The position numbers and the translations under genes were made by a program. The notes under the pieces were generated by a model that worked only from the letters and a program-made list of their open reading frames with translations, was not told the origin of the DNA and ran no database searches. Positions 9 to 58,398 of a DNA stretch of 64,000 nt are shown here, one piece after another. The stretch is from an uncultured Porphyromonas sp. (GTDB taxonomy: Bacteria; Bacteroidota; Bacteroidia; Bacteroidales; Porphyromonadaceae): positions 47,955 to 111,954 of the forward strand of contig NZ_UQJH01000003.1 in NCBI RefSeq assembly GCF_900541275.1, written 5' to 3'. Position 1 is the first letter of the stretch; the number at the start of each line of letters is the position of its first letter.

Positions 9-803
9 TTGGCCATTATAACGTCAAACTCGTGGGTTGTATTCGGTCAAAAACGTTACAAGGCGCTCTACGAATACGCGGAACGAAATGCCACGACCGG
101 CAAAGTCACTAACGATATCATACGTCTTAATTCTGAGAAAGGCTACTTCTCCTGTGTCAGTGAGAATACCTACCAAAAGAAGTTAGTACAGGACTCCCTC
201 CTCCACACCGGACTTGATCCCTACACCATCGTCGCCATGACACGAGATATGGCGAGAGGACAGAGGACACGTATCTTCACCGACCTCGCAAGCAATACCA
301 GGACGGTATACGAGTATCCCATGACACAGATCCACTACGAGGAGCCTCTTCCCACTGTGACATGGGAGCTGTCAGACGAGGTGAAGGAGGTCAATGGCAT
401 CCCCTCCAAGCAGGCGAGGGGCAAGCTCTACGGACGCGAGTGGATCGTCTCCTATGCGACGGATGTCCCTCTACCTGTGGGACCGTGGAAGCTCACCGGT
501 CTGCCCGGTCTGGTGACAGAGGCGGTCACGACCGACAGTCTCTTCCACTTCACGCTCATCTCCTTTGCCCTCACCCCCGATGACGAGCGTCCTATCATAC
601 CCTCACCCTTGACCGCCTCATCACCATCCAAGAAACAGTTGAAGAAGGAGGTCCTCCACGCCCTACATCAGTGCGCCACCAACAACCGAGCCTGGCTCAA
701 GAAGCTCTACCCCGTGTCCAGCCAGCCTGAAGAGACCCCGGAGGACCTCCGGCGGATGGCACTCGCCCGCAAGTCGTACCAGTATATCGAGCGAGCAGAG
801 TGA
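9..803 (+). CDS. GLPGLI family protein (possibly 5'-truncated by window edge)
   Basis: Contains a 'TGLPGLV' motif typical of the Bacteroidota GLPGLI family (TIGR01200). No signal peptide is visible at the N-terminus, so the start may lie upstream of the window. The stop overlaps the start of the next gene (ATGA). Confidence 0.6.
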   Translation: MAIITSNSWVVFGQKRYKALYEYAERNATTGKVTNDIIRLNSEKGYFSCVSENTYQKKLVQDSLLHTGLDPYTIVAMTRDMARGQRTRIFTDLASNTRTVYEYPMTQIHYEEPLPTVTWELSDEVKEVNGIPSKQARGKLYGREWIVSYATDVPLPVGPWKLTGLPGLVTEAVTTDSLFHFTLISFALTPDDERPIIPSPLTASSPSKKQLKKEVLHALHQCATNNRAWLKKLYPVSSQPEETPEDLRRMALARKSYQYIERAE

Positions 804-3367
804 TCCGGAGGCATCTCCTTTTTCTTCTTCTCCTTCCCCTCACGCTGACCATTGCCACCGCTGAGGAGTGGTGTGGAGTGGTCAGGGACGCCGAGACCGG
901 CGAGGGGATATCGACGGTCCAGATCCTTCTGCTCCGTGGTGAGAGCAAGGTGATCCGTCAGACGATCAGCCTGGAGGACGGCACTTTCTGTCTCGCTCTC
1001 CCCGACTCCAAGTCCGACCTCACGGTCCGCGCCGCACTGATCGGCTACCGGACGGAGGTGGTTCGCTTAGACACCCTCCTCATGAGAGAAGGAAAAGAGA
1101 TCCTGCTCCACCGGCAGGACTTCAAGCTCCCCGAGGTGCAAGTGCGGGCGAAAGCCATCGAACAGCATGGCGACACGGTCAGCTACCGTACCTCCGCCTT
1201 TGCACAAGCGATGGACACTAAGCTGGAGGATGTGCTGACGCGGCTCCCTGATGTCTCTGTCTCCTCCGGCGGTATGATCTCCTACAAGGGACGAAGTATC
1301 AATCGCTTCTACATAGAGAACCTTGACCTCCTCGGCAGTCGATACACCCTTGCCTCGCGTAACATCCGACCTGAGGATGTCGCCTCCGTACAGATCTACG
1401 AGCACCACGAGCCGATCAGGCTGCTCAGGGAGCAGAGCCGATCCGACCGCGCTGCACTTAATGTGAAGCTCAAGGAGTCTGCCAAGAAAAGGTGGCTCAG
1501 GGACCTAAGCGGTGCTGTCGGCGGCTGGCCGCCGATCGGCAAGGTGAGCGGTTCGCTCATGAACTTCCAGCCCCGGCGGCAGACCATCCTCGTCGCCAAG
1601 GGAGACAATACCGGCAACGACATCATCTTCGAGACCCGAGTACAAAACATCGGCATGGGGGTGGTCTTCAACCCCTACGAACTCTCCGGAGGACCGGAGA
1701 ACCTCTTTGCGGAGCGAAAGATCTACAGCACCTTCTTCGGACGCGATCGAAGGCGCGACAATCAGACCGCCTTCCTCTCCCTCAATCATCTCATCGCCCT
1801 GTCCGACAGAGAAACCCTTCGGATCAATCTCAACGGATTCCACGACCGAAACCGACTCAGAGAGGAGCGGGAGAGCCACTACTACGACCCTGCGCTCGGA
1901 TCGATCGACCTCCGAGAGACCACCGACTATCTCTCGAAGCGCAGTGCAACGGAGAATGAGCTTACCTATGAGCAGAATGGGGAGGAGCTCTATCTCAAGG
2001 ACATCCTCTCCGTCCGCTACCACCACCTCACCACCGAGGACAACGCTGCCGTCAATGGTCGGCCTCGCACCATTGATATGCTCCTCCCCTCCCTCCGGCT
2101 CTCCAATTCGCTCACTGCGAAGAAGCTCCTCGGCGGGCATCTCTATACCGCCGCCCTCGGCATAGGGTACAGCAGCCGTCCTCAGGAGATGACCCTCGCA
2201 GGAGAGACTCCCTATCGGCTGCAGTCCGATGACCTCACTGCCACACTCGCTCTGGAGGGCACCTTTTCCATAGGTCAACATCAGCTCTCCCCACAGATCA
2301 GAGGCGGCCTGGAGAGCTATGAGCTTAGGATCGGGGAGCAAGAACAGGATCCCCGTAAGGTCCACAGTAAGGAGCTGACCTCCGACCTTTCTGTAGAGTA
2401 TCGATACCAGAGTAATGGACTGGAACTGAGGCTCACACCTGCCCTTAGTGCAAGACTGCAAGATCTCCCCGGAGGGAGACAGCAACACCTCCTCCCCGGC
2501 GTCAGTTCCTCGATCAGGTATGACTGGATGGGCGGGAGGACACTACTCATCTACAGCTTCAGCACAAGCCGACCGGAGCTAACATCCTACTTCCCGCACA
2601 TGATCCGCGTCGGTCTGACAGACTACCGGGAGGGAATCACGGACCAAGGGGTGACACGCTCGCACAACCTACTGCTCCGACAGGAGGGGACAGCGCCGTG
2701 GGATCTCTCCTATGTGCTCACCGGTCGAGGAGGGCACGTGACCGCACCGAGGATCTATAGTCTCTCTGTCAGGGAGGGCAAGAGGATCCGCTCCTACCTC
2801 CCACTCGCCCACAGCGCCCTCTCCGGCGGTCTCTCTGCGGAGCTCTCCAAGTACTTCTCTGGACCGATGATCACACTCAAGGGGACGGTAGGCTGGGACA
2901 GCTCCAAGGGCGACACCTACCAGCAGGGACTCATGATCCCCTATCGTGGGTCTGACCTCTCGTATGGGGCATCCCTGAACTGGATGGGAAGCACGCTGAT
3001 GACCCTCGAGTATGGCATCGAGAGCGACCGATCCCGAGTCCACATCGGGGATAGGGCGACAGACCTCATCACCCGGAGTCTGGAGCAGACCCTGCGAGGT
3101 ACCCTACTCCTCTGCGCACACTGGGGAGTATCCGCCGACCTCCAGCACCGCTACAGCAGTTCGCCCCTATATGACCCGATCAACCAAGTCTTCCTCGACG
3201 GCAAGATCTACTACACGAGGGACAAGCTCCGTCTCCAGATCGACCTCACCAACCTAACCAACGTCCGCTCAGAGTACTACCGCCGGACCGACGGTATCAA
3301 TAGCAGCAGCCGGCGTACCACCCTCCGCGGTCGGGAGGTGCTTCTTACTCTTACCCTCAAGCGGTAG
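800..3367 (+). CDS. TonB-dependent-receptor-like outer membrane protein with N-terminal CarbopepD_reg domain
   Basis: Signal peptide, a carboxypeptidase-regulatory-like beta-sandwich (VVRDAETGEGISTVQILLL...) and a plug-like segment (LEDVLTRLPDVSVSSGGMISYKGRS). This is the classic partner of GLPGLI proteins. Confidence 0.7.
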   Translation: MIRRHLLFLLLLPLTLTIATAEEWCGVVRDAETGEGISTVQILLLRGESKVIRQTISLEDGTFCLALPDSKSDLTVRAALIGYRTEVVRLDTLLMREGKEILLHRQDFKLPEVQVRAKAIEQHGDTVSYRTSAFAQAMDTKLEDVLTRLPDVSVSSGGMISYKGRSINRFYIENLDLLGSRYTLASRNIRPEDVASVQIYEHHEPIRLLREQSRSDRAALNVKLKESAKKRWLRDLSGAVGGWPPIGKVSGSLMNFQPRRQTILVAKGDNTGNDIIFETRVQNIGMGVVFNPYELSGGPENLFAERKIYSTFFGRDRRRDNQTAFLSLNHLIALSDRETLRINLNGFHDRNRLREERESHYYDPALGSIDLRETTDYLSKRSATENELTYEQNGEELYLKDILSVRYHHLTTEDNAAVNGRPRTIDMLLPSLRLSNSLTAKKLLGGHLYTAALGIGYSSRPQEMTLAGETPYRLQSDDLTATLALEGTFSIGQHQLSPQIRGGLESYELRIGEQEQDPRKVHSKELTSDLSVEYRYQSNGLELRLTPALSARLQDLPGGRQQHLLPGVSSSIRYDWMGGRTLLIYSFSTSRPELTSYFPHMIRVGLTDYREGITDQGVTRSHNLLLRQEGTAPWDLSYVLTGRGGHVTAPRIYSLSVREGKRIRSYLPLAHSALSGGLSAELSKYFSGPMITLKGTVGWDSSKGDTYQQGLMIPYRGSDLSYGASLNWMGSTLMTLEYGIESDRSRVHIGDRATDLITRSLEQTLRGTLLLCAHWGVSADLQHRYSSSPLYDPINQVFLDGKIYYTRDKLRLQIDLTNLTNVRSEYYRRTDGINSSSRRTTLRGREVLLTLTLKR

Positions 3368-3445: not shown

Positions 3446-3505
3446 CTAATAGCGGTAATAGAGAAATCTATTACCGCTATTGGTCACGCTTATTACCGGT
3501 AATAG
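3446..3505. repeat. Phased palindrome array, variant A: three 16-bp units (CTAATAGCGGTAATAG / CTATTACCGCTATTGG / CTATTACCGGTAATAG) centred 22 bp apart
   Basis: Read directly from the sequence. Unit centres fall at 3453.5, 3475.5 and 3497.5. Confidence 0.8.
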
Positions 3506-3573: not shown

Positions 3574-3581
3574 TAGATTTG
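3574..3581 (+). promoter_or_regulatory. Candidate Bacteroidota -7 box (TAGATTTG) for ffh
   Basis: Matches TAnnTTTG and lies 66 bp upstream of the ffh ATG. Confidence 0.3.
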
Positions 3582-3646: not shown

Positions 3647-4999
3647 ATGTTTGAAAGTCTATCGGACCGACTTCTTGAGTCCTTTAAGAACCTTAAGGGA
3701 GAGGGATCCATCACCGAACTTAATGTCGCTGACACCGTCAAGGACATACGTAAGGCCTTGCTGGAGGCGGACGTCAATTACACCGTCGCCTCCGACTTTA
3801 CGAAGAGCGTCCTCGACAAGGCGGTGGGCGAAAAGGTGGTCTCCTCCATCAAGCCGGGACAGAAGCTGGTCCAGATCGTCCACGATGAGCTGACGCGCTG
3901 TATGGGCGGCACCGAGGTGGAGCTGAGGACCGACGCGGACCCCAATATCATCCTGATGTCGGGTCTGCAGGGCTCAGGTAAGACCACCTTTGCCGGCAAG
4001 CTCGCCAATATGCTGCACAAGAAGAAGGGGCTGAAGCCTCTCCTTGTCGCCGGGGATGTCTATCGACCGGCTGCCATCGAGCAGCTCAAGGTGATCGCTG
4101 CTCAGATCGGCATACCGGTCTACAGCGAGGAGGGCAATCAGGATCCGGTGGCGATCGCTGAGCGGGCGCTTGCCTTTGCGAAGATGAATGGTCGCGACAC
4201 GATCATCATCGATACCGCCGGGCGCCTCGCCGTGGATGACGTGCTGATGACCGAGATCGCCAATATCAAGACAGCGGTCAGACCGACACAGATCCTCTTC
4301 GTCGTCGACTCAATGACGGGACAGGATGCGGTGAATACGGCCAAGGAATTCAATGACCGGCTCGACTTCGACGGCGTAGTCCTGACGAAGCTGGATGGTG
4401 ATACCCGAGGCGGTGCTGCTCTCTCGATCCGGACTGTGGTCGACAAGCCTATCCTCTTCATCGGTACGGGAGAGAAGATGGAGGCAATCGACGTCTTTTA
4501 CCCCACCCGTATGGCGGACCGCATCCTCGGGATGGGCGATGTCGTCTCCCTCGTGGAGCGGATGGAGCAGCAGTACGATGAGAAGAAGGCTGCCCAGCTG
4601 GAGAGCAAGATCAGGAAGAATAAGTTTGACTTCGACGACTTCCTCGAGCAGATCCAGCAGATCAAGAAGATGGGCAACCTCAAGGATCTCTTAGCCATGA
4701 TCCCCGGTGTCGGCAGTGCGATCAAGGACTTAGACGTAGACGACAGCGCCTTCAGCGGCATCGAGGCTATTATCCGCTCGATGACGCCCGAGGAGCGCGC
4801 CAATCCTGACATCATCAACGCTGAGCGGCGGAAGCGTATCGCTGCAGGTAGCGGGAAGGACATACAGGAGGTGAATCGCCTGATCAAGCAATTTAACTCC
4901 GCCAAGAAGATGATGAAGAAGATGAGCAGCCTCGGTCTCAATGGCAAGGGCGCTCCCTCTATGGCTCAGATGCGACAGCAGATGAGAGGCGGCAGATGA
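3647..4999 (+). CDS. ffh: Signal recognition particle protein Ffh
   Basis: N-terminal MFESLSDRL...NVADTVKDIRKALLEADV, the GLQGSGKTT P-loop and a Met-rich C-terminal M domain. Confidence 0.95.
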   Translation: MFESLSDRLLESFKNLKGEGSITELNVADTVKDIRKALLEADVNYTVASDFTKSVLDKAVGEKVVSSIKPGQKLVQIVHDELTRCMGGTEVELRTDADPNIILMSGLQGSGKTTFAGKLANMLHKKKGLKPLLVAGDVYRPAAIEQLKVIAAQIGIPVYSEEGNQDPVAIAERALAFAKMNGRDTIIIDTAGRLAVDDVLMTEIANIKTAVRPTQILFVVDSMTGQDAVNTAKEFNDRLDFDGVVLTKLDGDTRGGAALSIRTVVDKPILFIGTGEKMEAIDVFYPTRMADRILGMGDVVSLVERMEQQYDEKKAAQLESKIRKNKFDFDDFLEQIQQIKKMGNLKDLLAMIPGVGSAIKDLDVDDSAFSGIEAIIRSMTPEERANPDIINAERRKRIAAGSGKDIQEVNRLIKQFNSAKKMMKKMSSLGLNGKGAPSMAQMRQQMRGGR

Positions 5000-14137: not shown

Positions 14138-14191
14138 GAGATCGAGGCTCTCTTGTCCGGAAGGGACGAGGGAGCCTCGATCTCTTTTTTT
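14138..14191 (+). terminator. Rho-independent terminator after ftsH
   Basis: A GAGATCGAGGCTC ... GAGCCTCGATCTC stem followed by TTTTTTT. Confidence 0.8.
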
Positions 14192-14431: not shown

Positions 14432-14491
14432 CTAATACCGATATTAGTGAACTCTAATACCGATATTAGAGGATTCTTTTACCGGTATTAG
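14432..14491. repeat. Phased palindrome array B: CTAATACCGATATTAG x2 + CTTTTACCGGTATTAG, centres 22 bp apart
   Basis: Read directly from the sequence. Unit centres fall at 14439.5, 14461.5 and 14483.5. Confidence 0.85.
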
Positions 14492-31842: not shown

Positions 31843-32421
31843 TCAGCGGACACCGAGGAGCTTATGCTGCTGGAGAGAGAGGCACCACTGCGGATGGGCG
31901 AGCACATAGGCAACGGTCTCAGCGATGATCTCACGATTGCGCACCGGGTCGCCCACGTCGCAGGGCTGGAGGAGGTAGTGGTCGGCGTGGATGCCGTAGT
32001 CACTCACCTCATGCGCCCCGTCATAGATCACCTTGAGCTCATCGACTCGCGCGAGGACCACACGACCCTTTGTCCCCACGTAGGCGAGCTTAGGCGAGCA
32101 GGTGATCCAGTCCACCCCAGTGGGGAGCAGATGGGTGCCATTGGTCTCCACGGCGACACGCTTGCCGAGCGCCCGGAGTCCCTCTACAAGGGACTCCGTC
32201 AGCTGGAGAGATGGCTCTCCACCGGTGACGACAACGAGCGGGGCGGGGTATGAGCCTACCTCCGTGAGGATCTCAGCCTCAGTCATCTCGGTGCCGTGCC
32301 GGAAGTCTGTATCACAGAAGTCACAGGCTAAGTTGCAGCCCGAGAAGCGGAGGAAGACCGCCGGAGTACCGGCCTGCACGCCCTCTCCCTGCAGGGAGTA
32401 AAAGATCTCGCAGACCCTCAT
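31843..32421 (-). CDS. queE: 7-carboxy-7-deazaguanine synthase QueE
   Basis: Radical-SAM CNLACDFCDT motif within MRVCEIFYSLQGEG. Confidence 0.85.
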   Translation of the reverse strand: MRVCEIFYSLQGEGVQAGTPAVFLRFSGCNLACDFCDTDFRHGTEMTEAEILTEVGSYPAPLVVVTGGEPSLQLTESLVEGLRALGKRVAVETNGTHLLPTGVDWITCSPKLAYVGTKGRVVLARVDELKVIYDGAHEVSDYGIHADHYLLQPCDVGDPVRNREIIAETVAYVLAHPQWCLSLQQHKLLGVR

Positions 32422-32768
32422 AGGCCGGCGTCATGCTCATCGATGGTATAGAGTGCGGTATTATTCTCCGACTCACACACCTTAGCCTTGTAGCAATTGG
32501 GGATCTGCTCCACACACCAGCGGGCAATATTCTCCGCCGTGGGGTTGAAGGGCAGGAGCTCATTGAAGTCCCCATGGTCGAGATAGGCGTGGATCCGTTC
32601 CTTGATGACATTGAAGTCCACCACCATACCCTCAGCATTGAGCTCCTCAGAGCGGCAATAGATCGTGATGATCCAGTTGTGCCCATGCACTCGGCTGCAC
32701 TTGCTGGGATAGGGAAGCTCCAGATGGTGGCATCCGGCGACCTCAAGTCTCTTAGCGATATAGTACAT
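32418..32768 (-). CDS. queD: 6-carboxy-5,6,7,8-tetrahydropterin synthase QueD
   Basis: MYYIAKRLEV...CSRVHGHNW...DFNVIKE motifs. The start is set at MYYIAK; the track's longer ORF (to 32891) adds a non-conserved N-terminus. Confidence 0.8.
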   Translation of the reverse strand: MYYIAKRLEVAGCHHLELPYPSKCSRVHGHNWIITIYCRSEELNAEGMVVDFNVIKERIHAYLDHGDFNELLPFNPTAENIARWCVEQIPNCYKAKVCESENNTALYTIDEHDAGL

Positions 32769-32968
32769 AATATTGTATAGTGCCTTCTTATAAAAAGGGA
32801 TTGAGTGGACCTGTGCTGATTGCCCCGATGACAAGGACCGATCAATGGGCGGTCGGGACGGGGAATACATATCGGGAGAGCGAACTCTCATACCTATCCG
32901 TGGTGGAGTCTCGATAAGCCCCCGACACAGTAGGGCGCAAAGATCCGTATCTTTCTTATTTCCTTATG

Positions 32969-32976: not shown

Positions 32977-33148
32977 CTGATTTTACACGCCCCCCCTCGC
33001 TTCGCCCCACCCTCCGAGCAGTGGTGACGCATATAAGGACCACCAAATAGCGACACTACTATGCCCGAGCGTGCACACGATTCCCCTGTCCCTTGTGGGA
33101 TATCAGGTGGATTACACCGGGCTAGCAGCCTCGGCATCAGGCTCCATT

Positions 33149-33230
33149 CTTTTACCGATATTAGAGACGACTAATATCGGTATTAGTATTTTCTTTTACC
33201 GGTATTAGTGATCTCTAATACCGATATTAG
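33149..33230. repeat. Phased palindrome array C: four units (CTTTTACCGATATTAG, CTAATATCGGTATTAG, CTTTTACCGGTATTAG, CTAATACCGATATTAG), centres exactly 22 bp apart
   Basis: Read directly from the sequence. Unit centres fall at 33156.5, 33178.5, 33200.5 and 33222.5. Confidence 0.85.
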
Positions 33231-33309: not shown

Positions 33310-33317
33310 TATATTTG
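33310..33317 (+). promoter_or_regulatory. Candidate -7 box (TATATTTG) for rubredoxin gene
   Basis: Matches TAnnTTTG and lies 55 bp upstream of the ATG at 33373. Confidence 0.35.
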
Positions 33318-33372: not shown

Positions 33373-33537
33373 ATGAAGAAGTACGAGTGCACAGTCTGTG
33401 GCTGGGTCTATGATCCCGAGGTAGGTGATCCTGACGGTGGTATCGAGCCGGGAACAGCCTTTGAGGATATCCCGGAGGATTGGGTATGCCCCCTCTGCGG
33501 AGCCACTAAGGATGACTTTGAGCTGGTCGAGGAGTAA
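33373..33537 (+). CDS. Rubredoxin (54 aa)
   Basis: Translates to [54 protein letters not shown] with two CxxCG motifs. It is absent from the supplied ORF track, presumably because it is under 60 aa. Confidence 0.9.
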
Positions 33538-39375: not shown

Positions 39376-39663
39376 AATTCGTCTGTTACACTTTAGTTAC
39401 TAAGTCATTATACATCTTTTGATGCGCTAAAGATACCACAATTTCCAGAGTATGCCACAAGCCACCCGCCCCCTCAAAGGGTGACGCATTGGGGCGTTAC
39501 AGCTAAGAAGCGGCTCCCCCTGCAAGGTGCGATCCCTCTGACCGGTTAGTCTCCTGATGCTCCTACATACCGAGGGGCGGAGCTTCAGAGGGATCATCGC
39601 TCCTTCGCCAGACATCGAGACACGAGGTGGCGAAGACCGCAGGAGACGCAATTTTGGTTTAGA

Positions 39664-49759: not shown

Positions 49760-49837
49760 TGGTGGACCCTGTAGGATTCGAACCTACGACCCTCTGTTTG
49801 TAAGACAGACGCTCTAAACCAACTGAGCTAAGGATCC
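49760..49837 (-). tRNA. tRNA-Val (anticodon TAC), CCA encoded
   Basis: Reverse complement GGATCCTTAGCTCAGTTGGTTTAGAGCGTCTGTCTTACAAACAGAGGGTCGTAGGTTCGAATCCTACAGGGTCCACCA folds into a cloverleaf. The anticodon loop is CTTACAA. Confidence 0.9.
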
Positions 49838-49863
49838 GGTAATGGAATATTTCTGAAAAGCAG

Positions 49864-49938
49864 TGGACCCTGTAGGATTCGAACCTACGACCCTCTGTTT
49901 GTAAGACAGACGCTCTAAACCAACTGAGCTAAGGATCC
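49864..49938 (-). tRNA. tRNA-Val (anticodon TAC), second identical copy without encoded CCA
   Basis: A 75-nt body identical to the first copy. The 3' end is followed by CTG rather than CCA. Confidence 0.9.
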
Positions 49939-58256: not shown

Positions 58257-58302
58257 GGAGGAGGGAGAGCCACCCAAGCGGGCTCTCCCTCCTCTCTTTT
58301 TA
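58257..58302 (+). terminator. Rho-independent terminator after ROK gene
   Basis: A GGAGGGAGAGCC ... GGCTCTCCCTCC stem followed by TCTCTTTTT. Confidence 0.7.
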
Positions 58303-58338: not shown

Positions 58339-58398
58339 CTAATACCGATATTAGTGACGACTAATACCGGTATTAGTGTTTTCTTTTATCGGTATTAG
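58339..58398. repeat. Phased palindrome array D: CTAATACCGATATTAG, CTAATACCGGTATTAG, CTTTTATCGGTATTAG; centres 22 bp apart
   Basis: Read directly from the sequence. Unit centres fall at 58346.5, 58368.5 and 58390.5. Confidence 0.85.

Follow-up and report, generated by a model that had tools for sequence, protein, structure and literature searches.

The palindrome array upstream of ffh (array A) in the window, by which we mean the whole 64,000-nucleotide stretch of uncultured Porphyromonas DNA that was analyzed, belongs to a family of palindrome arrays with a strict 22-bp phase in one Porphyromonas clade, within which it is diverged and variable in copy number. The half-site exchange for which it was singled out is a tolerated, near-neutral A/T choice (W) at positions 4 and 13 of the 16-bp unit and gives no pointer to a second binding specificity. 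With moderate confidence, we read array A as one diverged representative of a lineage-specific intergenic family whose arrays act as cooperative platforms for a putative dimeric protein and modulate or insulate the adjacent promoter. No earlier description of such arrays was found in the searchable literature, and the family is apparently undescribed so far.

Array A and its surroundings comprise the following features, and the same array sequence is present in L001-L004.

800..3367, + strand: upstream gene, 855 aa, with an N-terminal CarboxypepD_reg-like domain; its stop codon lies 78 bp before array A
3446..3505, no strand assigned: array A, three 16-bp units and two 6-bp spacers in exact 22-bp phase
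3446..3461, no strand assigned: unit A1, CTAATAGCGGTAATAG, with a canonical left half, core GCGG and the variant right half TAATAG
3468..3483, no strand assigned: unit A2, CTATTACCGCTATTGG, the array A unit that varies most between strains
3490..3505, no strand assigned: unit A3, TTATTACCGGTAATAG, the sole fully swapped unit of array A
3574..3581, + strand: TAGATTTG, the Bacteroidetes-type -7 box (TAnnTTTG) of the ffh promoter, 68 bp downstream of array A
3647..4999, + strand: ffh, encoding an SRP54-type GTPase (Pfam SRP54 match), downstream of array A with its ATG at a distance of 141 bp

The preliminary description had reported here a three-unit array with a shared ACCGGT core, half-sites swapped relative to three other loci, and a perfect 16-bp palindrome at its end. 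The array is real, with units beginning at 3446, 3468 and 3490, and its 14-mers (≤2 mismatches) have 5 and 10 matches in the window versus 0.03 expected by chance. The ACCGGT core holds for A3 but not for A1 (GCGG) or A2 (CCGC), and the swap is complete in A3 (TATTA..TAATA) but limited to the right half of A1 (TAATA-GCGG-TAATA) and the left half of A2 (TATTA-CCGC-TATTG), which leaves TATTACCGGTAATA with the ACCGGT core confined to unit A3 within array A. The 16-bp palindrome CTATTACCGGTAATAG is absent from the window, where a T at position 3490 leaves a perfect palindrome of 14 bp (3491-3504); the complete 16-mer is present at the orthologous site of related strains (L098, L184-186 and L191-194). 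What looked like a swap is, in each half-site, the exchange of a single A/T base (position 4 or 13 of the 16-mer), and no half-site is rearranged. Relative to the family consensus CTAWTAYCGRTAWTAG, A1, A2 and A3 depart at 1, 2 and 1 positions, respectively, and the array carries bases that are rare in the family, namely G at position 7 (3/310 units), C at position 10 (5/310), T at position 1 and G at position 15. A2 is the reverse complement of A1 at 15 of 16 positions, and A1, the spacer and A2 form a perfect 18-bp hairpin as single-stranded DNA (3446-3483, -16 kcal/mol, z -6.8); in HMSC065F10, the hairpin of the corresponding pair has three mismatches.

Three sister arrays lie elsewhere in the window, each in an intergenic region.

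14432..14491, no strand assigned: array B, 3 units, 74 bp upstream of an S41 peptidase gene
32418-32891, - strand: queD-like PTPS gene beside array C
33149..33230, no strand assigned: array C, 4 units, in the divergent region between the queD-like PTPS gene and rubredoxin
33310-33317: a perfect TATATTTG -7 box between array C and rubredoxin
33373-33537, + strand: rubredoxin ORF (54 aa, CxxC...CxxC) beside array C, below the 80-aa ORF cut-off
58339..58398, no strand assigned: array D, 3 units, 187 bp upstream of a gene for an HU-CCDC81-domain protein

Array B begins 247 bp downstream of the strong intrinsic terminator of ftsH (14138-14184), and array D follows a terminator-like hairpin with a T-run (58260-58302, read from the sequence) that lies after a ROK-family gene. 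With terminators before arrays B and D and promoter boxes after the arrays, the arrays appear to occupy the untranscribed gap between a terminator and the next promoter. Neither a tRNA scan nor the Rfam 15 covariance models, applied to the whole window at gathering score, gave a match at the arrays; the only genes detected were two tRNA-Val genes, which are tandem tRNA-Val(TAC) copies on the - strand (49760-49938) about 25 bp apart.

To place array A among its relatives, a two-unit degenerate pattern, with W required at positions 3, 4 and 13 of both adjacent units, was scanned against 185,579 species-representative genomes, and nearly all of the matches listed fell in P. bennonis DSM 23058, Porphyromonas sp. 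HMSC065F10 (about 98% protein identity to the window) and three uncultured Porphyromonas MAGs. Counting as an array any two or more units that match CTNNTANCGNTANNAG with ≤2 mismatches in exact 22-bp phase, we recovered at least about 90 arrays from at least five genomes of the P. bennonis group, a count that includes orthologous and hence non-independent arrays. Array A belongs to this set by the same definition, with three detected units, an intergenic position and an outward-pointing TAnnTTTG box downstream. Arrays of three (n = 42) and four (n = 43) units predominated among those recovered, five or more units were rare, and the density was about one array per 16 kb. The unit logo reads C-T-A-W-T-A-Y-C-G-R-T-A-W-T-A-G, with C1, T2, C8, G9, G16 and the central CpG near-invariant, starts of CTAA, CTAT or CTTT and finishes of TTAG, ATAG or AAAG, whereas the spacer positions carry little information (0.2-0.7 bits). 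A search of viral contigs with the two-unit pattern returned four matches, of which the sole palindromic both-strand match (L189) comes from Porphyromonas-like chromosomal DNA in which no neighbour was informative. A series of six identical 22-bp repeats in a Paludibacteraceae MAG (L046:1588-1716; CTTTTATCGTTAATTG plus TCTAAA) was rejected as unrelated, its identical spacers marking it as an ordinary minisatellite.

The phase of the arrays is strict. Of about 300 unit junctions, one had a 21-bp spacing and all others 22 bp, and across 575 kb 272 good units lay inside arrays versus about one in isolation. Spacers were no more alike within arrays (2.87 of 6 positions) than between arrays (2.95 of 6), which together with the strict register indicates that the phase is maintained and is not a by-product of recent duplication; recent tandem duplication as the source of the 22-bp period was thus rejected family-wide. 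Among 13 orthologous array pairs, change affected 4% of constrained positions, 22% of positions 4, 7, 10 and 13 taken together and 28% of spacer positions, a contrast that ascertainment exaggerates, as a pair was counted only when each of its two arrays matched the motif; for positions 4 and 13 taken singly, the figures were 23% and 15%, respectively. What is kept is thus unit positions 1-3, 5-6, 8-9, 11-12 and 14-16 and the phase, while positions 4, 7, 10 and 13 and the spacers change freely. Neighbouring units stood more often in direct (FF+RR, 45) than in inverted orientation (FR+RF, 29). This led us to reject a required pairing or hairpin formation between units, and the strong single-strand hairpins are a by-product of palindromy. 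In the order of asymmetric cores, CCGA-type units tend to precede TCGG-type units (23 FR versus 6 RF junctions), giving arrays an F..F R..R appearance with one internal dyad. The 8 bp on each side of the arrays show a symmetric bias, with G/C favoured at -8/-7 and +7/+8 and A/T in the 3-4 bases adjoining the first and last units, and a degenerate extra half-unit (..ATACCGAC.. or ..ATATCC..) follows some arrays in register.

All arrays were intergenic (0/89 in genes, as called by a crude ORF and codon-usage gene caller). Among those classifiable, the flanking genes were tandem for 37 arrays, divergent for 14 and convergent for 4, with at least two arrays (L013 and L088) in the convergent setting, and several arrays began within 30 bp of the upstream stop codon. 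An outward-pointing TAnnTTTG was found within 20-220 bp of 51 of 72 arrays, and the boxes pointed outward far more often than inward (61 versus 10), at a median distance of 97 bp; no outward box was closer than 20 bp to its array, and most were 50-150 bp away. The distance from the centre of the last unit to the nearest outward TAnnTTTG showed a weak period of about 11-11.5 bp (49 cases, Rayleigh p 0.003-0.006, uncorrected for the seven periods tried and including non-independent orthologous arrays). Downstream of the arrays lie housekeeping genes with no relation to one another (ffh, S41 peptidase, rubredoxin, PPDK, feoAB, dnaN and metK), further examples being queC, rplM, panB, tRNA synthetases, an ECF sigma factor and an antitoxin. 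No regulon coherence was found among the array-adjacent genes, and no regulator recurred next to the arrays, where we saw only isolated BlaI-like, PadR, ECF-sigma and ROK genes.

The preliminary description had suggested that the half-site swap reflects either a second, paralogous DNA-binding specificity or an orientation-insensitive, structure-driven recognition, rather than simple sequence drift. Across the family, position 4 was A in 209 and T in 99 units and position 13 T in 205 and A in 103, with G/C almost never at either, a roughly 2:1 A/T usage that fits a recognition indifferent to A.T versus T.A. The units form a continuum around CTAWTAYCGRTAWTAG and not two classes, an outcome that the preliminary description had itself named as refuting its proposal. 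In the three P. bennonis-type genomes, CTAATA and CTATTA half-sites occur at about 60:40, both kinds are present in 45 of 49 arrays, heterotypic AA/AT units are in excess (85 observed versus 71 expected) and AT/AT (TATTA/TATTA) units are depleted (18 versus 25), whereas two homodimeric paralogs would predict the opposite. Since the two kinds mix within units and within arrays, two classes are ruled out. Drift also fares better than had been proposed, the degenerate positions changing about as fast as the spacers, and orthologous arrays of different genomes flip between W states and gain or lose units. The sister lineages nevertheless differ in half-site "dialect" (chi-square p 7e-23, over the arrays in L005-L097 and the window), with AA 189, AT 126 and TT 14 in P. 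bennonis-type genomes versus AA 218, AT 12 and TT 38 in HMSC065F10, the CAMXXM MAG and the window, and with TA at half-site positions 3-4 almost never in either. AT-type half-sites make up 4% (12/272) in the window's lineage and occur in 4 of its 40 arrays, among them the ffh array in the window and HMSC065F10 alike; given this rarity, array A is a genuine local outlier, and the earlier impression that it stands out from its neighbours was correct.

The history of array A was followed at the orthologous site of strains whose Ffh is at least 97% identical to that of the window, where the unit number ranges from one to four.

4 units: L098 and L184-186, with the first two spacers both 'agaaat'
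3 units: the window, L001-004, L029 and L191-194
2 units: L195
1 unit: L181-183 and L196-205, CTAATA[C/G]CGGTAAAAG

Unit 1 and the last, fully swapped unit are constant wherever two or more units exist, A1 being unchanged in the window, L029, L098, L184-186 and L191-195, whereas strains differ in the middle unit by as many as 4 of 16 bases. Of the 13 intergenic differences that separate the window from HMSC065F10, 6 fall inside the 60-bp array A, so that the units change faster than their flanks, and 3 of the 4 changes in unit 2 are exactly those that give the reverse complement of unit 1. We infer that these changes would be compatible with a single template-switch (quasi-palindrome correction) event in either direction. 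The extra unit of the four-unit alleles is, judging by their identical 'agaaat' spacers, a recent tandem duplication. The promoter block TTTTTTAGTAGATTTGCAAGG is kept in relatives with 0, 1, 2, 3 or 4 units, and at 93-94% Ffh identity, relatives lack the array and differ in their upstream genes but keep the block TTTTTTnGTAnATTTGC, including the TAnnTTTG -7 box. Since strains with a single unit and relatives with no array at all retain the ffh promoter, the array is dispensable for ffh. Likewise, the promoter of the S41 peptidase, downstream of array B in the window, is conserved in an array-less relative whose S41 peptidase is 78% identical, and the arrays thus appear, on comparison of these sequences, as add-ons upstream of promoters that are otherwise intact. 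A metagenome scan with Ffh yielded one close relative, and the other 79 loci (about 70% identical) were without arrays. In a filled/empty-site comparison at the S41-peptidase locus, the contigs that carry the orthologs end within a MITE (L207/L208), and synteny is different in the next relative (L209).

All five Porphyromonas genomes carry this MITE-like dispersed repeat of about 400 bp, which has terminal inverted repeats (TIRs) GGGGTGACGCATTTGAG and long palindromes in its interior (L098:2596-3950; L010:150-1010; L077:1000-1270 and 1885-2300; L189:645-; L207:1-170), and in the window it lies at about 39470-39650, with TIR-like matches at 33021 and 37978. TIR matches lay within 150 bp of an array in 19 of 44 cases. 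In L098, an inserted MITE separates the array from the ffh promoter, in L207 it directly adjoins the S41-peptidase promoter at the very point that corresponds to the end of array B in the window, and a 10-bp remnant, CAGGGGTGAC, occupies the same spot upstream of ffh in L181-183. We rejected the view that the arrays belong to the neighbouring MITE, as the MITE has its own TIRs and lies 14-130 bp from arrays, and most arrays have no MITE nearby.

The near-invariant positions beside near-neutral W and spacer positions, the rigid 22-bp spacing, the narrow size range and the scarcity of single units together point to cooperative dimers on double-stranded DNA. Several dimers of one putative DNA-binding protein would bind cooperatively on one face of the helix, 22 bp being two helical turns. 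Recognition by this putative protein would depend on the invariant CT..TA.CG.TA..AG positions, with A.T and T.A equivalent at +/-5; minor-groove or shape readout, for instance, would confer just such a tolerance. The position upstream of promoters suggests a modulator or insulator, and the bound array may act in this way upstream of the -33/-7 core promoter and not as an occluding repressor. The composition of array A would then stem from descent within one labile array, shaped by slippage in 22-bp steps and perhaps by a template switch involving units 1 and 2, and not from a different ligand. Against such a platform stand the diverse neighbours without regulon logic, the dispensability of the array and the fast unit change at ffh, and the arrays between convergent genes; more than 90 near-identical arrays in a narrow clade would also be hard to explain without some copy-and-paste process. 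A bolder version is rather unlikely: the arrays would be the genome-wide platform of a lineage-specific global protein (nucleoid-associated or a promoter-upstream modulator) that binds only as an oligomer on 3 or 4 phased palindromes, the sites would have been copy-pasted, and the dialects, AA/AT half-sites in P. bennonis-type versus AA/TT in HMSC065F10-type genomes, would have co-evolved genome-wide between the sister lineages, leaving the ffh array as a relic or import of the sister dialect.

The main rival, though unlikely, is that the arrays are REP/BIME- or REPIN-like selfish or neutral extragenic palindromes, spread by a putative enzyme acting on hairpins of adjacent units and by slippage, with no dedicated regulation and with array A as an old, decaying copy. 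Their high copy number in a narrow clade, their strictly extragenic placement, some of it between convergent genes, and the functional incoherence of the neighbouring genes are all in keeping with such an origin, as are the change from 1 to 4 units at ffh in near-identical strains and the lack of an array in the next relatives, the stable single-stranded hairpins of adjacent units (z -3.4 to -6.8), the FR excess over RF junctions expected from one inverted-doublet progenitor, and the frequent proximity of a MITE family. However, the units lack a GTAG or CGTC tag, their spacing is strictly 22 bp where REP dimers vary from 1 to 100 bp, singletons are almost absent, direct neighbours are commoner than inverted ones, and a single unit gives only a weak hairpin with an AT-rich 6-bp stem; copies have neither spacers nor flanks in common, so that no transposed module is visible beyond the unit, and promoter boxes point away from the arrays by 6 to 1.

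Three further explanations are less probable. Intrinsic DNA structure, the structure-driven option of the preliminary description carried to its extreme, in which in-phase AT-rich half-sites every 11 bp bend the DNA, or cruciforms form, and promoter geometry or supercoiling is altered with no dedicated protein, is improbable as the whole account: the near-invariant C1, T2, C8, G9, G16 and central CpG are far more specific than curvature or cruciforms need, although positions 3-4 accept AA, AT and TT but almost never TA or G/C, AT-rich arms alternate every 11 bp, and the arrays lie upstream of promoters. The array-to-box periodicity of about 11 bp would also agree with it (p about 0.003-0.006, uncorrected), but is weak and includes non-independent orthologs. 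That two paralogous regulators divide TAATA and TATTA half-sites between them, with array A a target of the second, is very improbable, and this reading is close to refuted. The clustering of the rare AT-type half-sites in a few arrays of the window's lineage and the conservation of A1 and A3 across four lineages speak for it; against it are the excess of heterotypic units and the mixed arrays of the sister genomes, the full swap of just one of three A units, the flipping of orthologous arrays between states and the single-unit ffh alleles, which carry CTAATA..TAAAAG. Slighter still is the prospect that the arrays work as RNA hairpins, either stabilizing the 3'-UTR or terminating transcription of the upstream gene, or forming a 5'-UTR element of the downstream one, as the strong predicted hairpins between adjacent units and the arrays that begin within 30 bp after an upstream stop codon might suggest. 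Canonical terminators precede arrays B and D and would place them outside the upstream transcript, the -7 boxes lie downstream of the arrays and point away, no T-run follows the arrays, no Rfam model matched them, and direct unit pairs, which break complementarity, are common.

Among known systems, phased tandem operators such as the triple 17-bp operators of lambda OR/OL, GlpR/DeoR-type tandem operators and ArgR ARG-box pairs serve cooperative dimeric or oligomeric regulators. They share with the arrays palindromic units of 14-18 bp, two to four copies, a spacing of about two helical turns, conserved units and free spacers, but a genome has them at one or a few loci, where they overlap or adjoin the promoter, whereas the Porphyromonas arrays number at least 90, have -7 boxes mostly 50-150 bp off, adjoin unrelated housekeeping genes and almost never occur as single units. 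Position-specific unit conservation (affected by ascertainment), free spacers and a phase independent of recent duplication were all found as in operator arrays, and functionally coherent targets were not. ParB/Noc/KorB-type sites are 13-16-bp palindromes with a central CpG dispersed over a replicon, and KorB can act from upstream of promoters; the 16-bp palindrome, the invariant central CG and the tens to hundreds of sites per replicon are similar, but those sites are single and not in phased arrays, and the array sequence is unrelated to parS or NBS. The 22-bp iterons of plasmid origins (R6K, RK2) resemble the arrays in their 22-bp period and 3 to 7 copies. They are direct repeats without palindromy, confined to a single origin beside a rep gene, whereas the arrays consist of palindromic units at 90 or more chromosomal intergenic loci beside housekeeping genes. 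REP/BIME elements carry GTAG or CGTC at one end of the palindrome and occur as singletons or as head-head and tail-tail dimers with variable spacers, head-tail neighbours being rare (Di Nocera et al. 2013, PMC3733652). Like the arrays, REP/BIME/REPIN elements are short, strictly extragenic, clustered, high-copy, lineage-specific and hairpin-capable palindromes with strain-variable copy number, but their units are 20-40 bp versus 16 bp here and their spacers variable versus a strict 22-bp register (PMC3733652). The arrays show neither the tag, nor singletons with variable spacers, nor a rarity of head-tail neighbours. Collectively, the architecture resembles phased tandem operators and the distribution REP/BIME or ParB/Noc/KorB sites, and the arrays have the defining features of none of them.

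The claim of a second specificity at ffh can be set aside, and array A is best regarded as a labile, diverged copy. If a protein binds the arrays, they would offer a natural system for studying how a global regulator or architectural protein acquires more than 100 sites, the two half-site dialects would be a case for site-protein co-evolution, and the natural one-, two-, three- and four-unit ffh alleles would provide a test of whether unit number tunes the promoter. If the arrays are instead selfish, they would represent a new kind of extragenic repeat in Bacteroidota.
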